Shown in pieces: positions 1 through 60,851 of a stretch of 61,259 nt of DNA. Source of the DNA: a virus (Duplodnaviria > Caudoviricetes). The position numbers and the translations under genes were made by a program. The notes beneath the pieces were generated by a model. That model was given only the letters and a program-made list of their open reading frames with translations. It was not told the DNA's origin and made no database searches. The stretch is taken from positions 1-61,259 of IMG/VR virus record IMGVR_UViG_3300045003_000239; one strand, written 5' to 3'. How positions within the stretch are numbered: position 1 is the first letter of the stretch; each line of letters opens with the position of its first letter.

Positions 1-145
1 GGGAGCCCGTCTTCTTTAGGGGGGGGGGGCACGGAGAACCCGCCAGCAGCCAACCCTGAGGGACTGGGTCCCGTGCAACATCACGCTCAAGCGCGGGCTC
101 ACGGGCGCGAAGCCCGAAGGCTTCTGCTTCTGGGTCTTCGAGTGG
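1..145. repeat. Terminal direct repeat / circular overlap, left copy
   Basis: Identical to 61116-61259 except one extra G in the poly-G run (145 vs 144 bp). Confidence 0.95.
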
Positions 146-262
146 CTGAACCTCCAGCCCGACGACGAGTTCCACGACCTCTTCCCCGGCAGCGGCGCCG
201 TCACGCGCGCCTGGGAGAAGTGGCGCGCGCAGAAGCTCGGAGGTGCGCCCGTTGAAGCGTGA
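1..262 (+). CDS. 3' part of beta-class amino-DNA methyltransferase that wraps the join (5' part 60848-61259); frameshifted at the poly-G tract
   Basis: With G9 the frame reads FFRGGARRTRQQPTLRDWVPCNITLKRGLTGAKPEGFCFWVFEWLNLQPDDEFHDLFPGSGAVTRAWEKW (SAM motif DLFPGSG), TGA at 260-262. Confidence 0.85.
19..29 (+). repeat. Poly-G tract G11 inside MTase (out of frame)
   Basis: Direct count; the other terminal copy has G10. Confidence 0.9.
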
Positions 263-1286
263 GGACGCCTGGCTCGCGCACCTGGGCACCACGGCGAGCG
301 CGCGCTTCCCGCGCGAGGTCGCCTTCCCCGTCCAGGGCGTGGACCGCTTCACGCGCGTCCTCGTCCACAGCCCCAACGACTACGTCGAGCTCCTCGACCG
401 CCTCGCCAGCTCGCGCAACACGTACACCGGCGTGTACAGCCTTCCCCAGAAGCGCGAGCGCGTCTTCCACGTCGCCTACATGGACGTGGACGCCCCGACC
501 TTCGCCGAGGCGCACGTCCAGAGCGAGGCCCTCGTCCAGGAGAGCTATCGCCGCTACGGCAAGTTCCCTCGCGAGTACGTGAGCGGCGCCAAGGGCTTCG
601 CGCTCTACTGGGCCTTCCCCGAGTGCGCCGCGGACCCGCGCGCCATCCGCGACTGGTGCCTCAAGCTCGCCGCCGACGCCGGCGTCACGCTCCAGGACAC
701 GACCGTCCTGGGCGAGGTCGAGCGCGTCAGCCGCGTCCCATACACCTACAACTTCAACGCCGTCGAGAAGATCGGCCGCCCCGCGGTCTGCGTCCCCGTG
801 GATCCTCGCTGGAGCGCCGACGAGATGCTCCAGGAGAGCCGCGAGCCCTCCCGCTTCCTCGCGCCCACGGGCGACGTCTTCCCCGAGGTCGCGAGCGAGC
901 TCATGGACCTCACCCGCGCGCTGCCACCCGAGACGCCCGCGGCCGAGCTCCTCGCGCGCTTCGACCTCTCCCGCGCCGACGCGACCGTCCAGTTCTTCGT
1001 CGAGAACGCCGCGAAGGTCCGCGACGGCCGCCACCGCATCCTCGGCATGGTCCTGATCCCCTGGTGCGCCGCGAGCGGACGCACGGAGGCTGAGACCATC
1101 GCCTTCTGCGGCGCGTGGATCAAGACGACGCACGAGCCGCCGCACGACTACCGCGAGCACGTCCGCGCGAACTACGACTGGGCCCGCCGGCGCACGTGGC
1201 GCCCGTGGAGCCTGGAGTCGTTCTTCAAGAAGAATCCGGAGCTGCTCACGCAGTTCCTCTCGTCCTCACCCGAGGTGACCCCCTAA
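252..1286 (+). CDS. Archaeo-eukaryotic primase (PriS-like) with C-terminal PriX-like domain
   Basis: YMDVD (DxD), SGAKGF, SRVPYTYN motifs; C-terminal DGRHRILGMVLIPW; GGAGGTG SD before TTG 252 (alternative GTG 243). Confidence 0.8.
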   Translation: MKREDAWLAHLGTTASARFPREVAFPVQGVDRFTRVLVHSPNDYVELLDRLASSRNTYTGVYSLPQKRERVFHVAYMDVDAPTFAEAHVQSEALVQESYRRYGKFPREYVSGAKGFALYWAFPECAADPRAIRDWCLKLAADAGVTLQDTTVLGEVERVSRVPYTYNFNAVEKIGRPAVCVPVDPRWSADEMLQESREPSRFLAPTGDVFPEVASELMDLTRALPPETPAAELLARFDLSRADATVQFFVENAAKVRDGRHRILGMVLIPWCAASGRTEAETIAFCGAWIKTTHEPPHDYREHVRANYDWARRRTWRPWSLESFFKKNPELLTQFLSSSPEVTP

Positions 1287-1564
1287 TGGCCTGGAAAAAC
1301 AACGAGTCCGTCGAAGTCCAACAGAACGCCGTCATGTCCGCCATCCGCCGCGCCCTCAACGGGAAGCGGCAGGTGACCGCGACTGAGGCCTACGAGGCAT
1401 ACAAGCAGGAGACCCTGCCCGAGCCGATCACGCACTTCAGCAACCGCCGCTTCCTCGACTACATCCACAAGCTCGAGGAGCAGAAGCAGGTCAAGTGCAT
1501 CGTCGTGAGCCGCGGGCGCAAGGGCGCCGCGCTCCACGTGAGCCTCCCGGAGGCGACCGCGTGA
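1286..1564 (+). CDS. Stand-alone Cdc6/Orc1 C-terminal winged-helix domain protein
   Basis: TEAYEAYK...FSNRRFLDYIHKLEEQKQVKCIVVSRGRKG...VSL matches the Cdc6_C pattern; TAATG overlap with primase. Confidence 0.75.
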   Translation: MAWKNNESVEVQQNAVMSAIRRALNGKRQVTATEAYEAYKQETLPEPITHFSNRRFLDYIHKLEEQKQVKCIVVSRGRKGAALHVSLPEATA

Positions 1565-2100
1565 ACGCGCCCCTCGTCCGCCGCAGCACGCACGAGAGCG
1601 TCGTCGAGGGCTACGAGAAGAGCCTCGCCGCCCGCGACGCCCTCATCCGCGAGCAGGAGAAGAAGATCGCCGACCAGAACCGCGCCATCGCGACGCTCAA
1701 CGCCGAGCACGCCCGCGAGGTCGCCGAGATCCGCCAGCAGGCCCGGGACCAGTTCCAGGACGCCATCCTCGCCTCCACCGAAGCCCTCGCCGAGGCCTAC
1801 GAGGAAGTCGCCGCCATCACGCGCACCCTCTCCGGCCGCGGGCGCCCGCGCATCTGCGCGCGGTGCACCAACGGCGTCGGCGAGCACAACGAGCACTGCG
1901 TCGGCGCGCGCATCGTCGAGTACGCGACCATCAAGGCCGGCGAGTACCGCGCCCGCCTCCCGCCCCTCCACGATGCGACCGCTCCCACCATGACGTCCGC
2001 GCTCCAGGGCGAGGACGCCAAGGCTGCCATGGACGAGAACGGCGTGAGTCCCGACGAGCACGCCGTCTTCGAGAACGCCCTCGCGTCCGAACCCGCGTGA
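1561..2100 (+). CDS. Hypothetical coiled-coil protein with CxxC/HxxxC metal site
   Basis: GTGA overlap, typical codon usage. Confidence 0.6.
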   Translation: MNAPLVRRSTHESVVEGYEKSLAARDALIREQEKKIADQNRAIATLNAEHAREVAEIRQQARDQFQDAILASTEALAEAYEEVAAITRTLSGRGRPRICARCTNGVGEHNEHCVGARIVEYATIKAGEYRARLPPLHDATAPTMTSALQGEDAKAAMDENGVSPDEHAVFENALASEPA

Positions 2101-2105
2101 ACCCC

Positions 2106-3434
2106 ATGTCCACCGCCGCCCAGTGGCTCAAGGCCAACACGCACACGCTCGACTTCTGGGACGCCAACGCGGACCAGATCTGGGGCGTCGTGACCAGCGG
2201 CGGCAGCGGCAACAAGTACACCGTCTCCCTCACGAGCGACGGACGCGCAACGTGCGGCTGCGCCTACTCCTGGATCGGCCCCGGCCGGTTTTGCAGCCAC
2301 CTCTGCGCGCTCCTTCTGAAGATGCCCCAGGTCGTCGTCGCCCAGCGCCTCGAGGCCATGGTCCGCATCCAGCACGACGACGAACCCTTCCCCCTCCCTT
2401 CGGTGACCCAGATGAAAGGCGACTTCGGCTATCTCACGACGACCATCCCCGCGTTCAACGACCTCATGGGCGGCCTGCCCTACGGCACCATGATGGGCCT
2501 CTACGGCCCGGCCGGCACCGGCAAGAGCATCATCGCCATCCAGGCCGCGTTCGAGACGCTCGCCCAGCGCCCCGGCGACGCGCTCTTCGTGGACACCGAG
2601 GGCGGCTACGGCACCATCGTGGAATGGACCCCCATCCTCGCGAAGCGCTACGGCCTCGACGTCCAGGTCGTCCCCCTCGCCAGCAGCGTGGATGAGGACG
2701 AGAAGGTCACCGTCGTGCCCGTCGTCGCCGTCCAGAAGGGCAAGCGCCACATCTTCGTCGCCGACATCCGCAGCATCGAGCCTCTCAGCGACTTTCACGG
2801 CCGCAGCGGGCGCATCAGCATCTCCGAGGTCAAGGAGAAGGGCGGCGAGCTCAAGGGCGGCAAGATCACCTGGAAGAAGCTCAACACGGGCTGGGTCAAC
2901 GACGTCTGGGAGACGCCCATCGGGAAGTGGTGTGCGAAGCACAAGATCTGCTTCCTCGCCTACGACAGCGTCACGAACCCGCTGGAGGTCTTCGGCAGCA
3001 ACGCCGAGTCGTTCCCCGCCCGCGGCGACGCCACGAAGGACCTCCTCAACGTCGCCCAGCTCATGACGTACGAGATGAGCCTCGTCACCGTCGCCATCAT
3101 GCACGAGGTCGTGAACCCGCAGAGCACGGGCGGCCAGCGCCCGCAGCAGACCGGCGGGAGCGGCGTCGCGTACAACTTCAAGATCAAGGTGTACGTCGAG
3201 GGCCCCCGCAAGAGCTTCCACACGCCCCAGCTCGAAAAGGAGGTGAACGCGCGGCGCGGCAAGAACACGCGCCTCTTCTGGCTCAGCCGCCACCTCTCGC
3301 GCAAGGAGTGGGAGCGCCCCGTCCTCCTCGACCTCACGAACGACGGCTACGTCGGCGCCGGCGAGAAGGCCACGCCCTTCGTCGAGCCCACCGACCCCAC
3401 CGCCGAGCCCGAGGCCGAGCCGGAGGTGAGCTGA
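2106..3434 (+). CDS. SWIM zinc finger fused to RadA/RadB-like RecA-family ATPase
   Basis: YTVSL..ATCGC..FCSHL (SWIM); Walker A GPAGTGKS, FVDTEGG, Walker B AYDS. Confidence 0.85.
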   Translation: MSTAAQWLKANTHTLDFWDANADQIWGVVTSGGSGNKYTVSLTSDGRATCGCAYSWIGPGRFCSHLCALLLKMPQVVVAQRLEAMVRIQHDDEPFPLPSVTQMKGDFGYLTTTIPAFNDLMGGLPYGTMMGLYGPAGTGKSIIAIQAAFETLAQRPGDALFVDTEGGYGTIVEWTPILAKRYGLDVQVVPLASSVDEDEKVTVVPVVAVQKGKRHIFVADIRSIEPLSDFHGRSGRISISEVKEKGGELKGGKITWKKLNTGWVNDVWETPIGKWCAKHKICFLAYDSVTNPLEVFGSNAESFPARGDATKDLLNVAQLMTYEMSLVTVAIMHEVVNPQSTGGQRPQQTGGSGVAYNFKIKVYVEGPRKSFHTPQLEKEVNARRGKNTRLFWLSRHLSRKEWERPVLLDLTNDGYVGAGEKATPFVEPTDPTAEPEAEPEVS

Positions 3435-3698
3435 ATGGCGCCCGACGTCAAGGCCATCGTCGTCGAGATCGCCAAGGTCAGCCTCCGCAAGGGCGACCTC
3501 CTCATCGTCAAGGTCCCGCCGGGCTGCTCGCAGCAGATCCGAGACCAGGTCCACCGCGAGCTCAAGGCCATGCAGTCGGACGGCGCGCTCAACGGCGCCC
3601 ACTACATCGTCGCCGACCACGGCTTCGACTTCGTCCAGGGCCAGGGCCCCGCCCACGAAGCTCCCGCCGCCCCGCCCGCGGGAGGTGCGCCCCAGTGA
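3435..3698 (+). CDS. Hypothetical protein
   Basis: GGAGGTG SD, coupled ORF. Confidence 0.55.
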   Translation: MAPDVKAIVVEIAKVSLRKGDLLIVKVPPGCSQQIRDQVHRELKAMQSDGALNGAHYIVADHGFDFVQGQGPAHEAPAAPPAGGAPQ

Positions 3699-5164
3699 GC
3701 GTCGAAGCCCTCCCCCACTGGAAGGACACCGTCGCCCTCCTCAAGACGAAGGGCTACACGGACGAGCAGATCACCAGCGCGGCCGACGCCAAGCGCAAGA
3801 TGCTGGGCAAGGCCGCGCGCACCGAGGACTTCGTCCTCTGGACCGTCGCCCTCGGCTTCGGCGTCGAGGTCCCCAAGATCACGACGATGGAGCGCAAGCC
3901 CCGCGGCGAGGCCAAGCCCATCACCGCCGGCGACGTCACGCGCGAGTTCGGCGAGACGAACAAGGACCAGGAGTTCGCCATCGAAGGCTGGGTCCTCAAC
4001 CCCGTCGAGTACTACACGAAGACGACCCCGCCCAAGCCCCGCATCAAGGTGGCCTTCGTGGACTCCACCGGCAGCACGCAGATCACGTGCTTCGGCGAGG
4101 AGTCCTGCGAGCACTGGCGCAACCACGAGCTCGACTACCCCAGCTTCGTCCGCCTCGAGGGCCTCCAGGTCTTCGCGCTCGGCGAGGACGGCGTGACGCT
4201 CACGCACGGCAAGTTCGCGCGGTGCACGAAGCTGGACCCGGCCTACCCGCTGGAGAAGGCGCTGCCCGACGCGAGCGACGCCTACGTGGCCGAAGGCAAG
4301 CTCGCCCGCATCCAGGGCTTCGTCACGGACGAGTCCCAGAAGACGTGGAAGCGCTGCTCGAAGTGCGGCAAGGGCGACAAGAACTGCAAGGGCCACCAGG
4401 GCGGCCAGACGTACGAGGACCAGGAGATCCACACGGTCACCGTCTTCGACGGCAACGCGCGCCACACCCTGGTGATGTTCGACGAGCTCGCGCCGCGCCG
4501 CAAGCTCTACGGCTTCCCCATCGAGGCCATCGGCCTCTACCGCAAGAAGGAGAAGGGCCCCGGCGAGTTCGAGGCTGTCATCGTGAACGTCGGCGCCGAG
4601 CCCGCCTTCAAGCCGCTCCCCACGACGCTCAAGCCCGAGTCGAAGCCCGCGCCCGCCCCGCGCGCCGCGCCCCAGCGCAGCGGCGACAACGCCGTCTGGC
4701 CGCAGACGGTGGACGTCCTCAACCGCGCCCTCCGCCCGCACCGCCTCCGCCCCGTCACGGACGTCCTCCAGGCGTTCCAGGAGGCCGGCATCGGCGCGGA
4801 GGACGCGCAGGACCAGATGAACCGCGCGTGCGCCCAAGGCATCGTGCGCGCCGCGGGCGAGCAGTACCAGTGGATGGGCGGTGACCCCCAGGTCGGCGAG
4901 CCTCCCGCCGCCGCCCCGGCGCCCGCGACCTCGCCCGCCGCGAGCGCGCCGCCTGCCTCGTCCGAGGAGCGTTCCCGCCAGCGCAAGGTCATGGGCCTCG
5001 TCCGCAAGCTCGACGACGGCAAGGGCGCCCCCTGGGACAAGGTAGCTGAAGCCGCCGCGAGCGAGGGCATGGACGCGAAGATGATCGACGAGACCATCGA
5101 AGCGATGCTGACCACCGGCGACGTCTGGGAACCCGTCCTCGGTCGCCTCAAGCCCAAGGAGTGA
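3695..5164 (+). CDS. Archaeal RPA-like ssDNA-binding protein (OB folds, Zn finger, C-terminal winged helix)
   Basis: FVDSTGSTQITCFGE OB signature, CSKC..CKGH, C-terminal GAPWDKV..G..IDETIEAMLTTGDVWEP..GRLK. Confidence 0.8.
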   Translation: MSVEALPHWKDTVALLKTKGYTDEQITSAADAKRKMLGKAARTEDFVLWTVALGFGVEVPKITTMERKPRGEAKPITAGDVTREFGETNKDQEFAIEGWVLNPVEYYTKTTPPKPRIKVAFVDSTGSTQITCFGEESCEHWRNHELDYPSFVRLEGLQVFALGEDGVTLTHGKFARCTKLDPAYPLEKALPDASDAYVAEGKLARIQGFVTDESQKTWKRCSKCGKGDKNCKGHQGGQTYEDQEIHTVTVFDGNARHTLVMFDELAPRRKLYGFPIEAIGLYRKKEKGPGEFEAVIVNVGAEPAFKPLPTTLKPESKPAPAPRAAPQRSGDNAVWPQTVDVLNRALRPHRLRPVTDVLQAFQEAGIGAEDAQDQMNRACAQGIVRAAGEQYQWMGGDPQVGEPPAAAPAPATSPAASAPPASSEERSRQRKVMGLVRKLDDGKGAPWDKVAEAAASEGMDAKMIDETIEAMLTTGDVWEPVLGRLKPKE

Positions 5165-5170
5165 GCCGCC

Positions 5171-5839
5171 TTGGAAGCGCCGGCCCCCTTCCCCATCCTC
5201 GTGGACGACCGCGAGGACAAGAAGCTCCTCGCGAAGCTCGCCAAGATCGAGGGCGCCCAAGTCCTCGTCACGCGCCTCCCAGTGGGCGACGTGAGCATCG
5301 GCGACTACCTCTGCGAGCGGAAGGAGGCCGGCGACTTCTTCAACAGCCTCATGGACCACCGCTTGTTCCGCCAACTCAAAGAGCTGCGCGACAACAGCGA
5401 GTTCCCCATCCTCATCTTCTGCGGCGATCCCCACGTCGAAATCTCGTGGCGCCGCACGGATGCCCAGCGCCTCCACATGAGCTTCATCGGCGCGAAGGCC
5501 GCCATCGCGCGCATGGGCATCAGCTTCCTCGAGGTCCGCAGCGACGACGAGTACATCGAGCTCCTCGTCTCGATGGCGAAGCAGGCGAACCCGAACCGCC
5601 CGCCCAGCGACCGGCCCGTCCTCACGCGCAAGGCGGACCGCAAGCCGCAGGAAGTCGCGAGCGACGTCCTCTGCGCGCTCGACGGCGTCGGGCGCGACCT
5701 CGCGGACAAGCTCCTCGCGCGCTTCGGCACCATCCAGGCCATCGCGAACGCCAGCATGGAGGATCTCCGCGCCGTCCCCGGCTGCGGCCCCACGAAGGCC
5801 CAGGCCGTCCACGAAGCGTTCCGCTACCGGAGGACCTGA
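5171..5839 (+). CDS. XPF/ERCC4 (Hef-like) structure-specific nuclease with HhH
   Basis: ILVDDRE, LPVGD, ERKEAGDF..SL.D.RLF.Q, C-terminal (HhH)2. Confidence 0.92.
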   Translation: MEAPAPFPILVDDREDKKLLAKLAKIEGAQVLVTRLPVGDVSIGDYLCERKEAGDFFNSLMDHRLFRQLKELRDNSEFPILIFCGDPHVEISWRRTDAQRLHMSFIGAKAAIARMGISFLEVRSDDEYIELLVSMAKQANPNRPPSDRPVLTRKADRKPQEVASDVLCALDGVGRDLADKLLARFGTIQAIANASMEDLRAVPGCGPTKAQAVHEAFRYRRT

Positions 5840-5841
5840 CC

Positions 5842-6393
5842 ATGGGCACGCGCGTGAACGAGAAGACCGGCCAGGTCGTGCGCTTCGAGGAGGGCGACGC
5901 CTTCCGCACCGGCATGGTCTGGCGCCGCCCCATCGCGCGCTGGTTCGAGCGCCAGGCCTCCCGCCTCGACCTCCAGCGCCCCCTCGTCCACGTCTGCTCG
6001 GGCTCCTCGAGCCTCGGCGAGATCCGCGTGGACGCCGTCCATCCCCACGCAAACCTCCGCGCCGACGCCTTCCAGCTCCCGTTCAAGGACGAGAGCCTGG
6101 GCACGGTCATCTACGACGGCACGTACGAGATCAGCCTCCCCAAGCGCGTCGCCATCTGCAAGGAGCTTCGCCGGGTTATCCGACCAGGGGGGGGGCTGCT
6201 TTGGAAGCAGCGATGGCGCCCGCTCGAAGGCCTCTTCCTCATCGAAGAGGAATGGGTCGTCGGGCGCCGCGTCGGGTTGCCGCGCGACGTGGACCTCCTC
6301 ATCCGCACACAGCGGCGCTTCCCCGGCCCGAAGGTCGGCCAAGGCATCAAGACGGCCGCGCAGCGACGCGCCGGGGAGCGTGAGATAGCGTGA
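5842..6393 (+). CDS. SAM-dependent (probable DNA amino-) methyltransferase; poly-G in frame (ON)
   Basis: HVCSGSS, ADAFQLPFKDESLGTVIYDGTY (degenerate DPPY), ELRRVIRPGGG. Confidence 0.75.
   Translation: MGTRVNEKTGQVVRFEEGDAFRTGMVWRRPIARWFERQASRLDLQRPLVHVCSGSSSLGEIRVDAVHPHANLRADAFQLPFKDESLGTVIYDGTYEISLPKRVAICKELRRVIRPGGGLLWKQRWRPLEGLFLIEEEWVVGRRVGLPRDVDLLIRTQRRFPGPKVGQGIKTAAQRRAGEREIA
6187..6195 (+). repeat. Poly-G tract G9 (in frame)
   Basis: cca GGG GGG GGG ctg. Confidence 0.9.
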
Positions 6394-6966
6394 CCACCCA
6401 GCGCCTCAGCGTCGCGCACGTCAACGCTGCCTTCCCGAAGTACCCGATCACCGTGGACGACAAGGGCTGGGTGTACGGAGTCTGGTACTGCGGGACCGGC
6501 TGGCAGAAAGTCGTCCTCCACGGCCAGTACCCGCCTGGCTTCCTCAAGCGCGCGCTCGCCCTCTTCCCAGACGCTCGCGACGTTCTCCACGCGCCCAGCG
6601 GCACGCTCGGGCCCGAGTGGGGCACGACCGTGGACCTCGTCGTGGACGCCGTCCGCAAGCCCATGTACCAGGCCAGCGTCGCGGCGCTCCCCTTCGCCGA
6701 CAACAGCTTCGACCTCTACATCTCGGACCCGCCTTACACGGACGAGGACTCGAAGAAGTACGGCACGCCGCCCTTTCCCATGCGCGCCATGATGTCGGAG
6801 GCCAAGCGCGTTCTGCGAGGGGGGGGGGCACCTCGGAATCCTCCACCGGCACTATCCGACGTTCCGCCGGCAGGACTGGGACCTTGTTGGGCTCATCGCC
6901 GTCGTCACGGGGGCACAGCGCATGACGCGGATGTTCAGCATCTTCCGCAATCTCAAGGAGGAGTAG
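6390..6966 (+). CDS. DNA amino-methyltransferase (DPPY), frameshifted at G10 (OFF)
   Basis: VLHAPSG, LPFADNSFDLYISDPPY, KRVLRGGG; G9 gives HLGILHRHYPTFRRQDWDLVGLIAVVTGAQRMTRMFSIFRNLKEE* ending TAG 6964-6966. Confidence 0.88.
6819..6828 (+). repeat. Poly-G tract G10 (out of frame)
   Basis: Direct count. Confidence 0.9.
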
Positions 6967-6967
6967 C

Positions 6968-7416
6968 ATGAGCCTTCCCGTCGAAAAGGGGGGGGGGGCG
7001 ACTACGTCGCCTGGTACGCGAACCCGCGCCGCTCCGACGAGTGGGAAACGCCCGACGAGGTCTTCGCGACGCTCCATTCCGAGTTCCGCTTCACCGTGGA
7101 CGGAGCGGCCCGGGCCGAGAACACGAAGCTGCCTCGCTTCTGGTCGCCCGAGATGGACGCCCTCAAGCAGGAGTGGCGCGGCGAGCGCGTCTGGTGCAAT
7201 CCCCCGTACAGCCGCACCGCCGAGTTCATCGCGAAGGGCCACGAAGCCGACGTCGCGGTCTTCCTCGTGCCGGCGCGAACGAACGCGCGCTGGTTCCACG
7301 ATGCGCTCGCGCATGGCGCGCAGCCGCGGTTCTTCCCGCATCGTCTCAAGTTCAAGGGCGCCGAGAGCAGCGCGCCGTTCGACACGCTCCTGATGGTCTT
7401 CCGACGGTGGGTGTAG
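6968..7416 (+). CDS. Phage-type N6-adenine methyltransferase (Dam/T1-like, NPPY), frameshifted at G11 (OFF)
   Basis: SD AGGAGGA + ATG 6968; G9 joins MSLPVEKGGG to DYVAW..SDEWETPDEVF..EFRFTVDGAA..VWCNPPYS..VFLVPARTNARWF..APF. Confidence 0.9.
6988..6998 (+). repeat. Poly-G tract G11 (out of frame)
   Basis: Direct count. Confidence 0.9.
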
Positions 7417-7417
7417 C

Positions 7418-7939
7418 GTGATCGCAGCGCGCGAGGTCGTGGACATCGTCCGGGACAACCGGATGAACGGCCACTACCTCGAGCAGTGGGCCGCTGACCT
7501 TCTCCGCCGCATCCGCCGAGACGTCCAGGTTGTCGGCGGGATCCACGGCGGCGCCGTCCCCGACCACTTCCACCAGAGCGGCACGTGGGACATCCTCGCC
7601 GACGGCATCTTCTACGAGGTCAAGGGCTGCACCTTCCGCATCCGCCGAAGCAGCGTCCGCTCCAAGACGCAGTACGGCCGCTGGAAAATCGACGCCGACG
7701 CCCACCACGCCATCCCCGCCGACGTCGCCGCGCGCACGATGTACCTCCTCATCGTCCGCGTCGGCAAGCGCCCCGTCGTCGCCTACCTCGTCAGCCACGC
7801 GCGCATGACGAGCATCCTGGAGCGCTACTGGCGCCAGGGCCGCTTCGTGAGCCTGAGCCACATCGTCGTGGGCCGCGAGCTCCTCACCATCTTCGACGCC
7901 CGCCGCAAGGCGAGCAAACCGCGCAGGGGGGGGGCGTGA
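7418..7939 (+). CDS. Putative PD-(D/E)XK endonuclease
   Basis: E..A....WDILADGIFYEVKG pattern; follows the MTase cluster; G9 at 7926-7934 in its last codons. Confidence 0.55.
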   Translation: MIAAREVVDIVRDNRMNGHYLEQWAADLLRRIRRDVQVVGGIHGGAVPDHFHQSGTWDILADGIFYEVKGCTFRIRRSSVRSKTQYGRWKIDADAHHAIPADVAARTMYLLIVRVGKRPVVAYLVSHARMTSILERYWRQGRFVSLSHIVVGRELLTIFDARRKASKPRRGGA

Positions 7940-8029
7940 GCGTACTGCCTCACCTGCCGGCGCTTCTTCCTCGAAGCGTCGTTGACCTGCCCGCTGTGCG
8001 GATCTGACCACGTGAGGACGGTATAGAAT

Positions 8030-8323
8030 ATGGCACGCTGCTACCATGCGGGCGGAACGGACACCTGCTCGAACCCGACGTCTTGCACCTACGCGCTCGG
8101 CTTCTGGACCGCCAGAGCCGACATCGCCGAGGACGCGCACGCGCGCACCCTCGCCGAGCTCACCGACGCCCTCAAGAAACCCAAGCTGAGCCGCCGCGGC
8201 CTCGAAGCCGTCCTCAAGCGCGCGCAGGAGCGCGCCCTCGCGCCCGTCCCCGGCGACGTCCTGGAGGGCGGCATCCCGCGCCTCGAGAGCCTGACGCGGC
8301 ACCTCGCCCAAAAAACAGGGTAA
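8030..8323 (+). CDS. Hypothetical protein (Cys-rich N terminus)
   Basis: ORF with typical codon usage. Confidence 0.55.
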   Translation: MARCYHAGGTDTCSNPTSCTYALGFWTARADIAEDAHARTLAELTDALKKPKLSRRGLEAVLKRAQERALAPVPGDVLEGGIPRLESLTRHLAQKTG

Positions 8324-8353
8324 ATATATTGACCTCGGGGAGTACAGGCCGAG

Positions 8354-8884
8354 ATGCCGCCCAAGAAGCCGGCGAAGCCCACGCGCCCCACCCGCAAGCG
8401 CGGCCGAGGGCACCCGACGGCCCAGGTCCTGACCTCCGAGCTCACCGCCCAGATGGTCGAGCACATCAAGAGCGGCGTCACCATCAACGACGCCTGCGCC
8501 CTGGAGGGCATCTCGAAGCAGAGCCACTACCGCTGGCTCGACGAGGGCCTCGTCCCGCCCGGCGAATCCGACCACCGCCCCGCCTGCTGGACCTACCGCC
8601 TGGAGATCGAGGCCGCGCTCGCCTCCTACAAGCACAATCTCCTCAAGAACCTCCAGAGCGCGGCGTCGAACGGCCAGTGGCAGGCGAGCGCGTGGATCCT
8701 GGAGCGTCGCTTCCCCGACGAGTTCGGCCGCAAGGACAAGGTCGCGCTCAGCGGCGGGTTCGCCTCGAAGCCCGACACGCCCGACGAGCCCATCCGGCTC
8801 CTCGAGGTGAAGCTCACCGACAAGCGCGGGAAGCCGCCGGAGGGCGAAGCGCTTGGCGACGCCAGCGTGGACTCCCCCTCCTGA
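8354..8884 (+). CDS. terS: Terminase small subunit
   Basis: HTH (GVTINDACALEGISKQSHYRW), WQASAWILERRFPDEFGR; directly upstream of TerL. Confidence 0.8.
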   Translation: MPPKKPAKPTRPTRKRGRGHPTAQVLTSELTAQMVEHIKSGVTINDACALEGISKQSHYRWLDEGLVPPGESDHRPACWTYRLEIEAALASYKHNLLKNLQSAASNGQWQASAWILERRFPDEFGRKDKVALSGGFASKPDTPDEPIRLLEVKLTDKRGKPPEGEALGDASVDSPS

Positions 8885-10412
8885 TCCGAAGAGGCACCTC
8901 GCGCAAGCCGCGAAGGCCGCGGAGACGGAGCGCCCCGTCCTCAAGACGCAGTGGGAGGCGCACGCGGTCCAGAGCGACATCCTCACCAGCCCCGCGCGCT
9001 TCATCGTCGCCGCGATGGGCCGCCGCGCGGGGAAAACCGAGGTCGGCATCGTCTGGCTCTTCCGCGTCGGCCTCGAACTGATCGAGCAGGGCTACGACCC
9101 CGAGAGCATCGAACTCTGGTGGGTCGCGCCGACCTTCGAACTCACGCAGCGCGGCTACAACAAGATCATCAAGAAGACGAAGGAGGACGGCTCCCCGAAC
9201 CCGCTCTACGCGCTCTTCCAGCGCGGCGTGCGGAGCCCGTACCCCATCATCTACTGCAAGAACGGCCTCCGCATCCAGTTCAAGTCCGCCGAGCGCCAGG
9301 AGCAGCTCGAAGGCGAAGGCGTCCACGCCGTCGTCTTCGACGAGTTCTCCTGGGCCGGCGAGACCGCCTGGACCGAGTCCCTCTATCCCGCGCTGGGTGC
9401 CGCGGGCGGGCGCGCGCTCCTCATCTCCAAGCCGCGCGGCCGGAACCTCTTCTACCGCCTCTTCCAGAAGGGCCGCGACCGCGAAGCGAACCCCGAGTGG
9501 ACGAGCTATCACGCACCAAGCTGGTGCAACCCTTACCTCTACCCCGGCTTCATCGAGGAAGCCCGCCGCGACCTCCCCGACCGCGTCTTCCGCCAGGAGA
9601 TCGCCGCCGAGTTCCTCGACGACGCGGGCGCCGTCTTCCGCAACACGAGGACGCTCATCACGACGGAGGCGAAGTACCGCGGCCCCGCGACCTCGCGCGG
9701 CTGGGGCCTCCAGCGCGCCGCCGCGCCCGGCGTGCGCTACGTCGCCGGTTGGGACCCCGCGAAGCACGCGGACTACTCCGTCCTCACGGTCCTCCGTCTC
9801 CCCGAGCGCCACGTCGTCCACTGGGAACGCCGCCAGACCGTGGACTACCCGACGCAGTGCGAATGGGTCGCCAACGTCTGCCAGGGCTACAACCACGCGC
9901 CCCTCCTCATGGACAGCAGCGGCGCCGGCGACCCGGTCTTCGACTTCATCAGCCGCATCATCGGCGCCGGCGGCGTCGAGGGCTACAAGTTCACCAACGT
10001 CACGAAGGCCGACCTCGTGAACCAGCTCGCGCTCGCCATCGACAAGGGCACCGTCTCGTACCCCGACATCCCCGTCCTGCTCAACGAGCTGGAGATCTTC
10101 GAGATGACGAAGAGCGAGGCGGGCAACGTGAAGTACGCCGCGCCCGAGGGCTACCACGACGACTGCGTCATGAGCCTCGCCCTCGCGAACCTGAAGAGCA
10201 TGACCGGCGCCGCATGGGCGCCCCTGCCCGCGGACCACGCGCTCTCGCGCATCTTCACCGCCGAGCCCACCAGCACCGCGCCAGCGCGCGCTACGCTCAT
10301 CCCGCAGGGCGCCGTGCCCTACGGCGCGTGCGCGACGTGCAAGCAGCCGCTTGTCAAGATCGGCTTCAAGGTCCAGCACGCGGACGGCCGCCCCAAGTGC
10401 CCCGCTGCTTGA
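8853..10412 (+). CDS. terL: Terminase large subunit
   Basis: Walker A GRRAGKT, Walker B VVFDE, ISKPRG, RQEIAAEF, GWDPAKHAD, HDDCVMSLALA. Confidence 0.97.
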   Translation: MATPAWTPPPDPKRHLAQAAKAAETERPVLKTQWEAHAVQSDILTSPARFIVAAMGRRAGKTEVGIVWLFRVGLELIEQGYDPESIELWWVAPTFELTQRGYNKIIKKTKEDGSPNPLYALFQRGVRSPYPIIYCKNGLRIQFKSAERQEQLEGEGVHAVVFDEFSWAGETAWTESLYPALGAAGGRALLISKPRGRNLFYRLFQKGRDREANPEWTSYHAPSWCNPYLYPGFIEEARRDLPDRVFRQEIAAEFLDDAGAVFRNTRTLITTEAKYRGPATSRGWGLQRAAAPGVRYVAGWDPAKHADYSVLTVLRLPERHVVHWERRQTVDYPTQCEWVANVCQGYNHAPLLMDSSGAGDPVFDFISRIIGAGGVEGYKFTNVTKADLVNQLALAIDKGTVSYPDIPVLLNELEIFEMTKSEAGNVKYAAPEGYHDDCVMSLALANLKSMTGAAWAPLPADHALSRIFTAEPTSTAPARATLIPQGAVPYGACATCKQPLVKIGFKVQHADGRPKCPAA

Positions 10413-14565: not shown

Positions 14566-14918
14566 GCGGCTTCGCCAGCACGAACGACGACGTCGTCCTC
14601 TGCGTGCTGTGCGGCCAGTACCGCGAGCCCCGCGAGTTCCCCGTCCTCAAGGGGAACCGGCTCTACGAGCGCTGCAAGCCCTGTCTGCGGAAGTTCCCCG
14701 TCGAGTACCTCTTCGTCCGCGACAACGCCACCTGCGGCATCTGCCGCCTCAAGGTCCGCGACCTCCGCGAGGCCAGCCGCGACCACATCGTCCCCGTGAG
14801 CGCGTGGGACTGGAACGCGCGCCCGGAAGGCCCCCACGTCGAGGACAACCTCCAGCTCGCGCACCTCCGCTGCAACCTCGCGAAGGGCAGCCACGTAGGA
14901 GACACCGCCCATGCCTGA
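14562..14918 (+). CDS. HNH endonuclease
   Basis: CGIC...DHIVPVS...NLQLAHLRCNLAKG. Confidence 0.9.
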   Translation: MSGFASTNDDVVLCVLCGQYREPREFPVLKGNRLYERCKPCLRKFPVEYLFVRDNATCGICRLKVRDLREASRDHIVPVSAWDWNARPEGPHVEDNLQLAHLRCNLAKGSHVGDTAHA

Positions 14919-15567
14919 GCCCACCGGCTTCGTCACTGTCGTCCCTCACCCCGAGACCACGCCCACCCAGGCCCAGAAGGAGGCCGGCAACTACGCCAAG
15001 GGGCACCGCAGCGTCCAAGGCCTTGAGGTCGCCATCGAGACGCCCAAGGGCGCCACGCGCAGCGGCACCGACAAGCACGGCACGCCCTGGAGCGTCGTCA
15101 TGAACCACGACTACGGCTACCTCAAGCGCACCGAGGGCGCCGATGGCGACGCCGTGGACGTCTTCCTGGGCCCCTTTGCCGACACGAGCGACCGCGTCTT
15201 CGTCATCAACCAGATCGACCAGGAGACCGGCGACTTCGACGAGCACAAGGTCATGCTCGGCTTCCGCACGCCCGACGAAGCGAAGTGGGCCTACCTCTCG
15301 AACTACTCCAAGGGCTGGCGCTGCGGCCCGATCAAGGAGATGGCGCTCGACGAGTTCAAGACGTGGCTCCAGGAGGGCGACCTCACCGACGTCGCCAAGG
15401 CCCTCCCCGACGCGCCGCCCCTCTCCACCTGGCGCCAGCGCGGCACCGGCCGCATCGCCACCGTGATCCGCCGGCGCAGCGACGGCCGCGCCATGCTCCT
15501 CTTCCACGACCGCGGCGTCACGAAGCCGGCGGACCTCCGAGGCTTCGACCCCATCACGAAAGGGTAA
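14911..15567 (+). CDS. Phage polyvalent-protein type inorganic pyrophosphatase (InPase) domain protein
   Basis: PTQAQKEAGNY.KGH...IETPKG..RSG...YGY...EGADGDAVDVFLG...FDEHKVMLGF. Confidence 0.85.
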   Translation: MPEPTGFVTVVPHPETTPTQAQKEAGNYAKGHRSVQGLEVAIETPKGATRSGTDKHGTPWSVVMNHDYGYLKRTEGADGDAVDVFLGPFADTSDRVFVINQIDQETGDFDEHKVMLGFRTPDEAKWAYLSNYSKGWRCGPIKEMALDEFKTWLQEGDLTDVAKALPDAPPLSTWRQRGTGRIATVIRRRSDGRAMLLFHDRGVTKPADLRGFDPITKG

Positions 15568-16580: not shown

Positions 16581-16598
16581 GGAAATGATTATGATTCG
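16581..16598 (+). promoter_or_regulatory. BRE/TATA-like promoter GGAAATGATTATGATTCG
   Basis: 18-bp identity with 60573-60590. Confidence 0.7.
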
Positions 16599-16630
16599 GC
16601 GCGCGCTTGCTGGGCGCGGAGCGAACCTCC

Positions 16631-17503
16631 ATGTCAGCACCCACCGCCGCCTCGACGACCGCGCCTGCCACGCTGAAGATCACCCGCGACGACCTCGACG
16701 AGGCCGGCTACTACCGCCACTCCGAGAGCCTGAAGGTGGAGGGCTCCATCGAGATCGCCGCCGGCCTCTCGGTCGTCCGCTTCCGCGGACGACTTGAGGC
16801 GAAGCGAACGATTCGAGCTCTCGCGGGCTCGGGCATCTCCGCGGGCGAGGGCATCTCCGCGGGCGAGGGCATCTCCGCGGGCTGGGGCATCTCCGCGGGC
16901 GAGGGCATCTCCGCGGGCTGGGGCATCTCCGCGGGCGAGGGCATCTCCGCGGGCTGGGGCATCTCCGCGGGCGAGGGCATCTCCGCGGGCGAGGGCATCT
17001 CCGCGGGCGAGGGCATCTCCGCGAAGCGTTCCATCATCACGAAGCTCCAGGGCATCAAGGCGATGACCGTCAAGGCGCTCCGCATCCTGGCCGGCGTGGA
17101 CACCACCGAGCCGCAGACCATCAGCGTCACCGCCGTCGAAGGCGGCGAGGTCATGCTCGGCAAGGTCGTCTCGCGCGCCGAGGAACTGCGCGTCGTGAAG
17201 GAGGACATCTTCCGCGTCCTCGACACGAGCCCCGGCGAGGTCGCGGGCCTCCGCCAAGCCCTCGTGGACGGCCGCATCGACGGCTCCGTGTACCACGGCG
17301 ACTGCGCCTGCCTCGTCGGCACGCTCGCGAACCTCCGCGGCTGCGACGTCAACGACATCCCCGGCCTCAAGCCCGACAGCAAGCGCCCCGCCGAGGTCTG
17401 GTTCGCCCAGATTCGGCCGAAGCGCACGCCGGAGCACAGCGGCGTCGCCCGCCTCACGCTGCAGTGGATCGACGAGTACATCGCCGCCCACCCGCGCGCT
17501 TGA
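16631..17503 (+). CDS. Hexapeptide-repeat (GISAG[E/W]) protein
   Basis: Ten tandem repeats; C-terminal GRIDGSVYHGDCACLVGT domain. Confidence 0.8.
   Translation: MSAPTAASTTAPATLKITRDDLDEAGYYRHSESLKVEGSIEIAAGLSVVRFRGRLEAKRTIRALAGSGISAGEGISAGEGISAGWGISAGEGISAGWGISAGEGISAGWGISAGEGISAGEGISAGEGISAKRSIITKLQGIKAMTVKALRILAGVDTTEPQTISVTAVEGGEVMLGKVVSRAEELRVVKEDIFRVLDTSPGEVAGLRQALVDGRIDGSVYHGDCACLVGTLANLRGCDVNDIPGLKPDSKRPAEVWFAQIRPKRTPEHSGVARLTLQWIDEYIAAHPRA
16832..17023 (+). repeat. 18-bp tandem repeat x10.7 (GGCATCTCCGCGGGC[GAG/TGG])
   Basis: Direct reading. Confidence 0.95.
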
Positions 17504-17761: not shown

Positions 17762-17773
17762 GAGACCGCGCCC

Positions 17774-19516
17774 GTGACCGCCGCCGTCCTCGCCCCGACC
17801 CAACCTCTCGCCCCGCCTCGTGCACATCCCACTGAGCTCTTCGTGGACCTCTTCTGCGGCTTCGGCGGCGTCACCGCCGGCAAGAAGCGTGCCCTCAAGC
17901 GTCTCGGGCTGCTCGTGGGCGAGGACGCGGACATCATCTGCGTCAACCACAGCCGCGCCGCGCTCGACGGCCACACCGCCAACAACCCGGACTGCCTCCA
18001 CGTCCACTGCGACCTCGAGACGAAGGACCCGCGCGAAGTCCTCCGCACGACGCCCGAGTTCCCCGACGGCCACCTCTGCGACGCCTGCCGCGACCTCGAA
18101 GTCGTCGAGCCCTGCCCCGCGACGGGCAACGTCGGCCGCTACATCACCGGCATGTGGACGAGCGCGCCCTGCCAGCGCTGGAGCAACGCGGCCAAGGCGC
18201 CCTACTCGCGCCCGCAGGACCGCGCGACGCCCGACTACAACCATGACTGGCGCCGCTACGGACGCCCCGCCTTCGTGATCGAGGAGAACGTCAAGCAGAT
18301 CCGCACCCGCTGGGACGGCTGGGCCGCGCACGTCGCGAGCTACGAGGCCGATGGCTACCGCGTCGAGGTTCGCGTCCTCAACGCGGCCTGGTGGGGCGTG
18401 CCTCAAGGCCGCGAGCGGCTCATCCTCGTCGCGCTCCGCCGCGACATCTACGGCGACGGCCCCGCTCCGTGGCCCGCCGCCACCCACAGCGACCCTGAGC
18501 GTCCCGTCTCCGGCACGCAGCCATACGTGCCCGCCATCAGCGCGCTCGACCTCTCGAAGTGGGCGCCGAGCTTCTTCGAGGGCAAGAAGGTCAAGGGCCC
18601 CCAGCGCGGCCAGCCGTACTCGCGCATGGTGCGCGCCCGCATCGCGCGCTACATCCGCAGCGAGGGGCGCTTCTGGGAGCCGCTCGCCCGCGCCATCGAG
18701 GACTTCACGGGCCCTGTCCCGCTCGACGTCGCGCTCGCCTCCTGCCCCGAAGAGGAGTGGCCCTCGTGGCTCAAGCGCGACGGTGAGAACGTCGTCTTCG
18801 AGGGCTTCGCCGCGCCCGACATGGTCGTGAGCCAGTACGACGAGGGCGTCTGCCGCAGTCCCGACGACCTCGCCATGACGCTCACGACGGCCGGCTACGT
18901 GCGCTTCGCGCAGGTCCGCGCGGTCCTCCCGCTCCGCGGCCTCCGCGGCGGTGAGGAAGCGAACCCGGCTTACGACCCTGCCGAGCGTCCCAGCCATGTC
19001 GTCGTTGCGGGCCACGCGCACGGGAACTTCTTCGAGGCCCGTCTCCACTACGCCGCGCCGATCATCGTCCCCGCTCACGGCGAGGACAAGCGCCGCGGTG
19101 AGCACGGCCAGGCGCCGAGGTTCCACCCGCTCACGGACGTCGCGCCCACGACGCCGGCCAGCCGCGCGCTCGACGTCGCGTTCCCCTTCATCGTCACCTA
19201 CAACGGCGGGTACGGCAAGGGCCCCCAGGCTGACGTCGTCGAGCCCAGCACGACCATCACGACGCGGCCCCGCCACTACCTCGCCGCGCCGCGCATCGTC
19301 GCCCGCGCCAGCGAGTGCTTCCTCGACCTCGGCTACCGCCAGATCGACGTCCTTGAGACGGCCGTGCTGCAAGGCTTCGACCGCTCCATCAAGCTCGTCG
19401 GCAGCCTCCGCGTCCAGCAGCGCGGCATCGGTAACGCCGTCCCGCCGCCTCTCGCGGAGGCCGTCATCTACGCCGTGTACGAACGCCTCCTCCAGATTCG
19501 GGGCGTGGCTGCGTGA
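17774..19516 (+). CDS. C5-cytosine DNA methyltransferase
   Basis: DLFCGFGG, SAPCQ, EENV, LNAAWWGVPQGRER, IGNAVPP. Confidence 0.95.
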   Translation: MTAAVLAPTQPLAPPRAHPTELFVDLFCGFGGVTAGKKRALKRLGLLVGEDADIICVNHSRAALDGHTANNPDCLHVHCDLETKDPREVLRTTPEFPDGHLCDACRDLEVVEPCPATGNVGRYITGMWTSAPCQRWSNAAKAPYSRPQDRATPDYNHDWRRYGRPAFVIEENVKQIRTRWDGWAAHVASYEADGYRVEVRVLNAAWWGVPQGRERLILVALRRDIYGDGPAPWPAATHSDPERPVSGTQPYVPAISALDLSKWAPSFFEGKKVKGPQRGQPYSRMVRARIARYIRSEGRFWEPLARAIEDFTGPVPLDVALASCPEEEWPSWLKRDGENVVFEGFAAPDMVVSQYDEGVCRSPDDLAMTLTTAGYVRFAQVRAVLPLRGLRGGEEANPAYDPAERPSHVVVAGHAHGNFFEARLHYAAPIIVPAHGEDKRRGEHGQAPRFHPLTDVAPTTPASRALDVAFPFIVTYNGGYGKGPQADVVEPSTTITTRPRHYLAAPRIVARASECFLDLGYRQIDVLETAVLQGFDRSIKLVGSLRVQQRGIGNAVPPPLAEAVIYAVYERLLQIRGVAA

Positions 19517-21129: not shown

Positions 21130-21576
21130 CAGCCCCACGACACGAAGGGCCTGCATCCGGTCATCCCGGCACGTTGGCCCGGTCGTCCACGACGGCGAGG
21201 GATGGATCGCGGAGTGCTGCGGGGTGAGGCTGCGATGACACTGACCGCACCCAACGGCCGGATCGAGGGCGGCGCATACCGCCTGAGCGCGGCGAATCGC
21301 AGGCGTTCCGAGTGCGGGTGCTGCTCCGACGCGGGCCTGATCGAGAACCACATCTGCGCGTGCCCATGCCATGACGGCGACCTGGTGTTTCTCGACGGAG
21401 CGTGGGTCGATGGATAGGAGTGACCGCTTCTTCCTCGTGTGGCTCGCCGACGAGAGCGGCGACGAGGTGTGGGGCTGGGATTCGACCGAGGCCCCAAACC
21501 AGGGGCGCGAGGCGAGCCGCCCGGAGGACTCCTCCATCGACGGCCGCGAGTGGACAATCGCAACGGCGGTGGACGC

Positions 21577-22332
21577 ATGAAAGGAAGTGGCCCCGTCTTG
21601 GCCGGCGAGCGGTCGTGGGCCGTCGAGGAGGGGGACTGCCTGGAGCTGCTGCAGGCGCTCCCGCGGGAGTCCGTGGACGCCGTGGTCTCCGACCCGCCGT
21701 TCGCCTTCGCCGGCGGGATCAGCAACGGCTTGAGCGCACGGGCGGACGCTCAGTTCTTCGAGCATTGGCTCGTGGATCTCTTCCGTCAGCTCTATCGCGT
21801 GAGCAAGCCGGAGGCGGCGTGGTTCCTCTGGGCCGACTGGCGAACGGCGCCCGTGTACGATGCAGCGCTCGCGCGAGCGGCGCCGGACATGCACAGCGGC
21901 CGGTACGTCTCCCAGGTCATCATCCACGACCGAGAGATGGTCGGCATGGGGAGCCCGTTCCGGAACCAGACGGACTGGATCGCCCTCGTGCGGGGACCGG
22001 CCACCGACTTCAAGGCGCGCATCCCCAAGGACCAGCCGAACATCATCCGGTCGTACTGGTACTACGGCAAGCACGAGCACCACCCCGCGGAGAAGGACCC
22101 CCAGGTCGCGCGCAAGCTCGTGGAGTGGGTGACGGACCCCGGCGGGCTCGTGCTCGACCCGTTCACCGGCAGCGGGACGACGGGGATCGGCGCGCTCGCC
22201 GCGGGCAGGCGCTTCATCGGCATGGAACGCGACCCGGCGCACGTTGCGACGGCCCGGCGCCGTCTCGAGGAAGTGCCGACGGGTCAGCAGGTGCGGCGCG
22301 GGATCTTCTCCTTCGGCGAGGTGTCGGGATGA
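21577..22332 (+). CDS. Beta-class N4C/N6A DNA methyltransferase (no poly-G)
   Basis: GDCLELL..SVDAVVSDPPF...HPAEK...VLDPFTGSGTTG. Confidence 0.93.
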   Translation: MKGSGPVLAGERSWAVEEGDCLELLQALPRESVDAVVSDPPFAFAGGISNGLSARADAQFFEHWLVDLFRQLYRVSKPEAAWFLWADWRTAPVYDAALARAAPDMHSGRYVSQVIIHDREMVGMGSPFRNQTDWIALVRGPATDFKARIPKDQPNIIRSYWYYGKHEHHPAEKDPQVARKLVEWVTDPGGLVLDPFTGSGTTGIGALAAGRRFIGMERDPAHVATARRRLEEVPTGQQVRRGIFSFGEVSG

Positions 22333-57056: not shown

Positions 57057-57137
57057 GCGCTCGCATCCGGAGGGCGGTCATCCCGGCGGCTTCGGCCGCC
57101 CAACCGCCGGCGGTTCAAATCCGTCCGGGCGCCTCCA
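57057..57137 (+). ncRNA. tRNA-like RNA (acceptor stem + T arm + CCA; no D stem or anticodon loop)
   Basis: GCGCTCG/CGGGCGC stem, GGCGG-TTCAAAT-CCGTC T arm, GGCGGC-TTCG-GCCGCC hairpin, 3' CTCCA. Confidence 0.6.
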
Positions 57138-60611: not shown

Positions 60612-60851
60612 ATGCGGCCCGTGCGCTCCACGCGCTCCGTTTGCGTCCATCGGTTCGACGTGCTGAGCCGACCCAAGCGCGCCCGCCGCTTCGAGAGCCT
60701 CAAGGACGCCGTCGGCGCGCTCAAGCTCCGCGACCCTGGCTTCCGCGCGTTCCGCCGCGTCACCGCGCGCTTCTGGAGCGCCGGCGGCCACGGCGAGTAC
60801 GCCTTCGCCCACCCCGCCACCGCGCCCTGCCCGGAGGCCTGGACGCGGTGA
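60612..60851 (+). CDS. Hypothetical basic protein
   Basis: Leaderless position; GTGA overlap with MTase. Confidence 0.5.
   Translation: MRPVRSTRSVCVHRFDVLSRPKRARRFESLKDAVGALKLRDPGFRAFRRVTARFWSAGGHGEYAFAHPATAPCPEAWTR

Follow-up and report, generated by a model that had tools for sequence, protein, structure and literature searches.

Poly-G tracts in four DNA methyltransferase genes of an uncultivated soil virus as candidate contingency loci

Known homopolymer switches and the viral locus

DNA methyltransferases (MTases) are a main route by which phages escape restriction-modification, and methylation-dependent nucleases punish such escape. Homopolymer G runs of 9 to 11 bases are prone to slippage during DNA replication, as is known from homopolymer contingency loci. 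In this study, we describe five poly-G tracts in the IMG/VR virus record IMGVR_UViG_3300045003_000239, four of which lie within genes of the DNA MTase type. The whole record of 61,259 bases (69% GC) was analysed and is called the window. A first reading, made from the letters of the window without database searches (the sequence-only reading), had described the tracts as ON/OFF switches of an MTase array in a probable archaeal virus. On balance we lean, by a small degree, to the view that the tracts are contingency loci prone to slippage, through which MTase expression would become heterogeneous from one virus of the progeny to the next.

Bordetella phage BPP-1 carries a G8 tract in its bpm adenine methylase gene, and no other G or C run in the BPP-1 genome reaches 7 bases. 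The tract is reportedly a hotspot for frameshift mutations. BPP-1 is a temperate tailed phage, as the virus of the window probably is, with a high GC content (65%) and a poly-G tract in a DNA MTase gene at a P-G-G motif. Compared with the window, BPP-1 has a single tract of G8, which lies in one of its methylases and is in frame in the reference, whereas the window has four MTases with tracts of G9 to G11, three of which are out of frame. On polyG tracts in a methylase gene of BPP-1, the preprint of Gomez et al. (bioRxiv 10.1101/2025.10.21.683753) refers to Liu et al. 2004.

According to the same preprint (Gomez, Barrick and Waters, bioRxiv 10.1101/2025.10.21.683753), the homopolymer in the agt glucosyltransferase gene of phage T2 is a reversible contingency locus with a trade-off between two type IV nucleases, and frameshifts in agt allow the progeny to escape either TgvAB, which attacks modified DNA, or McrA/BC, which attacks unmodified DNA. 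As described there, T2 agt and the window have in common a homopolymer in a phage DNA-modification gene, and the bet-hedge is the one that the sequence-only reading had proposed. The T2 case concerns an AT-rich phage with A runs about 9 bases long, a single enzyme, glucosylation and measured reversion rates, whereas the window has G runs, methylation and four genes, and is known from sequence alone. Campylobacter phages of Fletchervirus carry several G7 to G11 tracts per genome in receptor-binding protein genes, which give rise to phenotypic subpopulations (Sorensen et al. 2021, as cited by Gomez et al.). As cited there, the Fletchervirus tracts concern receptor-binding genes and host range in an AT-rich host and phage, whereas the tracts of the window lie in DNA modification genes. 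Given the precedents of BPP-1, T2 agt and the Campylobacter phages, the principle is already in print.

In the bacterial phasevarions of Haemophilus, Neisseria, Helicobacter and Moraxella, simple sequence repeats are described as switching Mod and further MTases by slipped-strand mispairing. The window is like these systems, as described, in that a repeat tract in the reading frame of an MTase sets ON or OFF. A phasevarion is the methylation-dependent expression of a regulon, whereas the MTases of the window are orphan viral enzymes with no cognate Res subunit, whose expected role is protection of the viral DNA. The locus is not filed as a phasevarion. The sequence-only reading had been aware of no such case in an archaeal virus. 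This holds in part: the principle is known in viruses (BPP-1 bpm, T2 agt), and a limited literature search found no archaeal-virus case. A limited literature search likewise found no paper on several tract-bearing MTases in one virus, and the set of four unrelated tract-bearing MTases in one virus is what differs from the precedents.

Tract positions, reading frames and codon construction

The window contains five unique G runs of 9 to 11 bases, in agreement with the sequence-only reading, whose coordinates and lengths for the four MTase tracts were all exact. The two copies of tract 4 at the ends of the window are one locus, because bases 1-145 repeat bases 61116-61259, with one G in tract 4 as the sole difference. 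The tracts and the genes around them are as follows.

5842-6393, plus strand: MTase-like gene 1 (183 amino acids), in frame; Pfam Methyltransf_11, E-value 1.4e-5, 26.1 bits (cut-off 21.2)
6187-6195, plus strand: tract 1, G9, read CCA GGG GGG GGG (P G G G) at the family RPGG motif
6390-6966, plus strand: DNA MTase gene 2 (DPPY), frameshifted at its tract and restored by G9; both pieces match phrog_3816
6819-6828, plus strand: tract 2, G10; homologues read R-[P/I]-G-G-H with mixed Gly codons
6968-7416, plus strand: Dam-type N6-adenine MTase gene 3 (NPPY); Pfam Dam PF05869, 1.6e-25; phrog_111, 1.9e-37
6988-6998, plus strand: tract 3, G11
60848-61259, plus strand: MTase gene 4, 5' part, GTG start, DPIY; spans the contig junction
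61134-61143, plus strand: tract 4, end copy, G10, read AGG GGG GGG G at the conserved RGGR of the family
1-259, plus strand: junction repeat and gene 4, 3' part, motif I FPGSG
19-29, plus strand: tract 4, start copy, G11
7418-7939, plus strand: open reading frame 5 (ORF5), PD-(D/E)XK nuclease-like (173 amino acids); AlphaFold2 model with a predicted local distance difference test score (pLDDT) of 73
7926-7934, plus strand: tract 5, G9, occupying the final four codons of ORF5, outside its conserved core
17762-19516, plus strand: C5-cytosine MTase, tract-free (longest G run 4); PF00145, 3.2e-23; FxGxG, PCQ and ENV motifs
21424-22332, plus strand: N6_N4 MTase, tract-free (longest G run 5); PF01555, 2.9e-19; DPPF and FTGSG motifs

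The G runs of the whole window (both end copies of tract 4 included) numbered 26 at length 5, 3 at length 6, none at lengths 7 and 8, and two each at lengths 9, 10 and 11. The longest C run and the longest A run were 6 bases, and all T runs were shorter than 5. A first-order model predicts 0.27 runs of at least 9 G, compared with the five seen. The number of overlapping G9-pattern matches was 12 against a shuffle mean of 1.33, and 0 of 100 dinucleotide-preserving shuffles reached 12. The homopolymer census, which the sequence-only reading had proposed as a check, thus places the tracts in a separate length class, in excess of chance. Four of the five tracts lie in MTase genes, as had been claimed (P = 1.7e-4, with the six MTase genes making up 7.8% of the genome). 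The array of four tract-bearing MTases also stood, and the two tract-free MTases, which make six DNA-MTase-type genes in all, had been overlooked. The N6_N4 MTase belongs to the annotation class of Bpm and has a PGG-then-FxGSG site, yet it carries no tract. In all five tracts, the G run lies on the sense strand and is flanked by A on the 5' side and by C on the 3' side (5/5 each).

The tracts are repeat runs of G9 to G11 inside five open reading frames (ORFs), and a change of length toggles the frame of genes 2, 3 and 4, which is not the case for ORF5. In the assembled sequence only gene 1 keeps its frame, while genes 2, 3 and 4 carry a shift, so that three genes are OFF and one is ON, as the sequence-only reading had it. 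All four are read in frame only at G9 or G12, so the claim that these lengths give the intact enzyme holds at the level of the reading frame. The GC content at third codon positions (GC3) downstream of the tracts of genes 2, 3 and 4 was 0.87-0.91 in the G9 frame, compared with 0.37-0.65 in the assembled frame. Judged by homology and codon-position GC, the true downstream frame of the shifted genes is the G9 frame. No stop codons were found after the tracts in the G9 frame of the shifted genes. The stop-free downstream frames, the intact GC3 and the strong profile matches together suggest that the frameshifts are recent or reversible. In relatives, most G7 to G9 runs lie shortly before start codons. 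For the window, an internal restart or a Shine-Dalgarno role of the tracts was considered and rejected: in the coding frame, tracts 2 to 4 are not followed by an ATG, GTG or TTG, and in gene 3 there is no start codon ahead of GTG 7096.

The motifs DGTY, DPPY, NPPY and DPIY, which had been named for genes 1 to 4, are all present. The catalytic motif IV of amino-MTases (N6-adenine or N4-cytosine) is (D/N/S)PP(Y/F/W). It is canonical in gene 2 (DPPY) and gene 3 (NPPY), and not in gene 1 (DGTY) or gene 4 (DPIY). Genes 1 and 2 have no pairwise similarity, in line with the description of the MTases as dissimilar. Genes 2 and 3 match characterised DNA MTases by profile, and the gene 4 family does so by model. 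The N piece of gene 2 matches phrog_3816 at 4.7e-14 (profile positions 17-150) and the C piece at 4.3e-5 (positions 162-202). Read in the G9 frame, the C piece aligns to 5/5 intact homologues with scores of 92-166, compared with 22-28 in the assembled frame. Gene 3 starts at ATG 6968 with an AGGAGG ribosome site, and the frameshifting G11 run lies 20 nucleotides on; G9 or G12 restores its frame. Gene 1 has only the generic Methyltransf_11 match, and in its family (114 HMMER hits) D92, P93 and P94 are at least 90% conserved, with the nearest relative reading DGPY. The gene 4 family consists of proteins of about 165 amino acids (1292 hits), with no Pfam domain among the 120 matches listed. The two pieces of gene 4 in the window align to this family only at G9, and P8 and P9 of the family motif are at least 90% conserved. 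The model of the gene 4 relative P0002 (pLDDT 89) matches M1.HpyAVI and CcrM at E-values of 7e-6 to 1e-5 with probability 1.00, and also M.BceJIV; all three are beta-class N6-adenine MTases. The gene 4 family profile gave no meaningful match to PDB sequences, and only 4 of 24 family members matched PHROGs (E-value about 0.002).

The codon construction of the tracts is unusual for this genome. The sequence-only reading had stated that Gly is encoded almost entirely by GGC; this is right in direction, with GGC at 77% and GGG at 9.7% of 1194 Gly codons (32 control genes, 13,260 codons). None of the 111 Gly-Gly pairs in the control genes is GGG-GGG. The codons flanking the tracts are also rare: CCA makes up 4.8% of Pro codons, and CGA and AGG make up 7.5% and 2.3% of Arg codons. 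These codons CCA, CGA and AGG supply the 5' A of the tracts, and poly-C stays at 6 bases or fewer, even though Pro is most often encoded by CCC. In genes 1, 2 and 4 the tract coincides with a conserved Gly-Gly motif (RPGG, R[P/I]GGH and RGGR, respectively), and each of these three tracts lengthens the G run at the expense of an adjacent residue. Gene 2 reads R-G-G-G-H in the window compared with R-[P/I]-G-G-H in its homologues, and gene 4 reads RGGA compared with the family RGGR, in which the Arg is at least 90% conserved. On these alignments, the tracts override protein conservation.

Homologues were compared at two sites. The gene 2 set held 68 loci (7 viral, 55 metagenome and 6 genome loci), some of them duplicate records of one contig. 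In 0 of these 68 loci was a G or C run of at least 7 found within the gene, with identities of up to 71% over the whole query piece. The gene 4 site was readable in 69 of 80 loci; one held an in-frame G8 with the same codons, one held a G6, and the others had runs of at most 5. The search for tracts in related viral contigs, another check proposed by the sequence-only reading, was thus positive at the gene 4 site in 1 of 69 loci and negative at the gene 2 site. Its statement that the tract is not a coding necessity agrees with gene 2 homologues that have no tract and with a gene 4 family that nearly has none. Since the homologues mostly have no tracts, the tracts appear to be lineage-specific constructions and not family features. 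The G8 case lies at 1787-1794 of L205, a viral contig of 57% GC, and reads AGG GGG GGG AGA at the RGGR site of the window; by its position and codons, we take it to be a second, independent tract at this site.

Runs of another kind were seen in distantly related soil and sediment viral contigs. At seven loci (L065:1315, L082:3864, L118:4824, L120:2670, L128:1512, L142:3986 on the minus strand, and L169:3001), G7 to G9 runs lie 3-7 bases before start codons and resemble extended Shine-Dalgarno sites. Slippage there would change the spacing and perhaps the translation level. The IMG/VR contig L010, which carries a TerL relative, has C runs of 16, 19 and 22 bases next to one another within 65 bases (8048-8112); these may be an artefact of assembly or mark a homopolymer locus of extreme length.

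The uniform strand and flanks of the five runs bring in an explanation at the level of expression. The out-of-frame state could be the working state, in which slippage of the RNA polymerase or the ribosome yields a small fixed share of full-length enzyme; such low-level expression would suit potentially harmful MTases. Strand specificity, which replication slippage does not require, would fit this explanation, and the rare GGG codon could favour ribosome pausing. There is also laboratory evidence of frameshift bypass in G and C repeats. However, G9 keeps both gene 1 and ORF5 in frame, which argues against a uniform recoding design, and the shifts needed differ, being +1 for G10 and -1 or +2 for G11. 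Such bypass is also compatible with switching at the DNA level. We consider it very unlikely as the explanation of the out-of-frame genes.

Tract length variation and the switching model

The sequence of the window occurred in two soil sequencing runs of equal size, which are probably one data set filed twice and the source of the window; two further runs contained next to none of the words of the window, and all four are kept as contigs only. Short low-identity pieces, and 'joints' in the read-layout output, were left out as coming from other organisms. A Logan contig, which is an independent assembly of the same data (33,669 bases, depth 28.5), covered window bases 1-9000 with 0 mismatches and one gap. 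The Logan contig reproduced G9, G10, G11 and G9 at the four clustered tracts (1, 2, 3 and 5), and its one gap was tract 4, with G10 in place of G11. The results showed that the assembled tract lengths are reproducible and that the remaining assembly is accurate. Because the end copies of tract 4 differ (G11 and G10) and the second assembler gave G10, both lengths of tract 4 appear to have been present in the read set.

It could be argued that all tracts are really G9, with errors of assembly or base calling in the homopolymers, and that the four genes are intact and encode Gly-Gly-Gly. Long G homopolymers are generally error-prone on short-read platforms, and the contig's own copies of tract 4 disagree. 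However, two assemblers concur on the four clustered tracts at a depth of 28.5. Two of the five tracts were called G9, so the caller was not uniformly inflating length, and the long ORFs give no further sign of a frameshift. Even if the miscalls were true, they would leave the rare-codon G9 runs in MTase genes unexplained. We therefore give this explanation little credence.

If the tracts are contingency loci, as we slightly favour, the gain or loss of one G would take a gene into or out of its coding frame (G9 or G12), the other two frames being non-coding. The burst of progeny would then be a mix of ON/OFF combinations of MTases, beside the two tract-free MTases that would always be readable. 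In the dominant genotype sampled, the reading frame would be open in gene 1 and shifted in genes 2, 3 and 4. The pay-off may be that some of the progeny are methylated against host restriction enzymes while others are spared by methylation-dependent nucleases. The figure of 16 methylation states given by the sequence-only reading is overstated, since it presumes four active enzymes and genes 1 and 4 have a degenerate motif IV.

Several observations weigh against switching. The comparison covers assembled contigs only, and a difference in length was seen at one of the five tracts (tract 4). Scans for relatives yielded no near-identical virus in which tract lengths could be compared: the best identity in a TerL scan of IMG/VR was 37%, a pattern made of the exact flanks around a gap of variable length had 0 matches, and scans with gene 1 and with the gene 4 N piece gave 0 confirmed loci. 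The scan with ORF5 gave one weak locus, and that with the Dam gene 3 gave two loci at 55% and 30% identity. Replication slippage does not predict that all runs should be G on the sense strand or should share A...C flanks. Neutral drift of tract length would likewise produce a state with three of the four genes OFF. Gene 1, the only MTase gene whose tract is in frame, reads DGTY, and gene 4 reads DPIY, in families where at least 90% read DPP[YW], which fits relaxed selection on these genes. Tract 5 falls at the very end of ORF5 (its final four codons), outside the conserved core, and cannot switch ORF5 ON or OFF; the formation of tracts here is thus not strictly bound to switching.

Much of this evidence would suit a non-adaptive decay, in which the four MTases are under relaxed selection and the G runs are mutational hot spots that knocked out three genes with no selected switching. 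The degenerate motif IV of genes 1 and 4, the out-of-frame state of three of the four tract genes and the position of the fifth tract all agree with it, and the needs of the virus may be covered by its two tract-free MTases, whose motifs are canonical. Decay, however, leaves unexplained the origin of five runs of at least 9 G from rare codons (control GGG-GGG 0/111) and the location of four of them in MTase genes. It is also at odds with the G9 frame past the tracts, which is stop-free, with intact GC3 and strong profile matches. Overall, we regard decay as unlikely, if less so than bypass or miscalling.

A stronger form of the contingency-locus reading can be put forward tentatively and is, in our view, doubtful. 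Here, four unrelated MTases would each have been fitted independently with a sense-strand A-G9-C tract, by rare codons and the replacement of conserved residues, so that many methylation patterns arise per burst. If this were true, there would be up to 16 patterns with all four enzymes active, plus the two constitutive MTases, and a built-in hedge against classical restriction enzymes or methylation-dependent nucleases. Such constancy of strand and flanks would then point to an undescribed dedicated mechanism that generates or reads the tracts.

Genome, host and biological meaning

The genes of the window are those of a tailed double-stranded DNA virus, which is probably temperate. The structural genes encode TerL, a portal, a Mu-F-like head protein, a head protease, a capsid, and tail spike and fibre proteins. 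A family-B DNA polymerase, an ERF recombinase, a PD-(D/E)XK nuclease and a serine integrase represent replication and recombination; no lysis gene was identified among the window proteins. Nearly all genes lie on the plus strand, and ORFs of 1963, 1026 and 830 amino acids are uninterrupted. The end repeat of 144/145 bases indicates that the genome either is circular or has redundant termini, and that about 61,115 of its bases are unique. The genome is probably complete, although its record gives it as linear, with a completeness of 63%. The mismatch in tract length may have hidden the terminal repeat from automatic detection. A scan of 4800-8500 for promoters and terminators found nothing exceeding shuffles.

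ORF5 follows gene 3 directly. Its model aligned in VIA-align with NhoI (Z 9.4), Hjc (9.2), I-Ssp6803I (8.8) and PvuII (8.6), and D..EVK is invariant in 5/5 aligned sequences. PF25941 is listed for relatives of ORF5. On the model, ORF5 has a PD-(D/E)XK nuclease-like fold. After the ORF5 TGA, at 7937-8026 in the same frame, lies a stretch of 28 residues that resembles a zinc ribbon (CxxC-x14-CxxC); its GC3 is high, and it lacks a start codon. Fusion of ORF5 to this stretch through the tract was ruled out, since the TGA stands in that same frame at any tract length. The stretch may be reached by stop-codon read-through or may be a cut-off remnant. C-terminal zinc ribbons are fused in the ORF5 relative P0127 and the gene 1 relative P0128.

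Directly upstream of the MTase cluster lies one further gene.

5171-5839, plus strand: ERCC4 (XPF/Mus81-type) nuclease with a tandem helix-hairpin-helix tail; PF02732, 2e-14; HHH_5, 5e-10

Elsewhere, 11.2 copies of an 18-base unit (92% matches) follow one another at 16822-17023 within the ORF at 16595-17503, giving a hexapeptide repeat in a protein without a family match. The protein encoded at 14899-15567 is a stand-alone InPase domain (PF18823, 1.2e-53), a domain also found inside giant polyvalent phage proteins annotated as DarB-like antirestriction or endolysin in PHROGs. ARAGORN reported an odd tRNA with a two-base anticodon at 57063-57133 inside the ERF recombinase gene, which is probably a false positive.

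The virus had been taken for a probable archaeal one, and the evidence mostly points elsewhere. The sample is soil. An acidic proteome is typical of haloarchaea and their viruses, and none was found here: the ratio (D+E)/(K+R) was 0.96 over 30 ORFs (12,831 amino acids), with isoelectric points of 4.8 to 11.7. GGAGG-type ribosome sites precede the genes, and four of the six genome loci with gene 2 homologues are in Acidobacteriota metagenome-assembled genomes (MAGs). TerL matched phages of Thermus, Halorubrum and Tunturiibacter at about 30%, with an Acidobacteriota phage as the best-scoring match, and the family-B DNA polymerase matched four bacterial or uncultured phage records at 23-25% identity. 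On the other side, the only portal matches among cultured viruses are five haloarchaeal virus records, which are remote (22-27% identity), and these count against a bacterial host together with the remote Halorubrum match of TerL and the ERCC4 helix-hairpin-helix nuclease. The portal protein was absent from the five MAGs that carry gene 2 homologues, and no related prophage was shown in them. A bacterial host is more likely.

Tracts of this kind lead annotation pipelines to call MTases broken, and in this record a tract appears to have masked the terminal repeat, so that a probably complete genome was scored as a 63% complete linear fragment. If the tracts are contingency loci, viral epigenetic bet-hedging can be multi-locus and combinatorial, and it would occur in uncultivated soil viruses, beyond single genes of laboratory phages.

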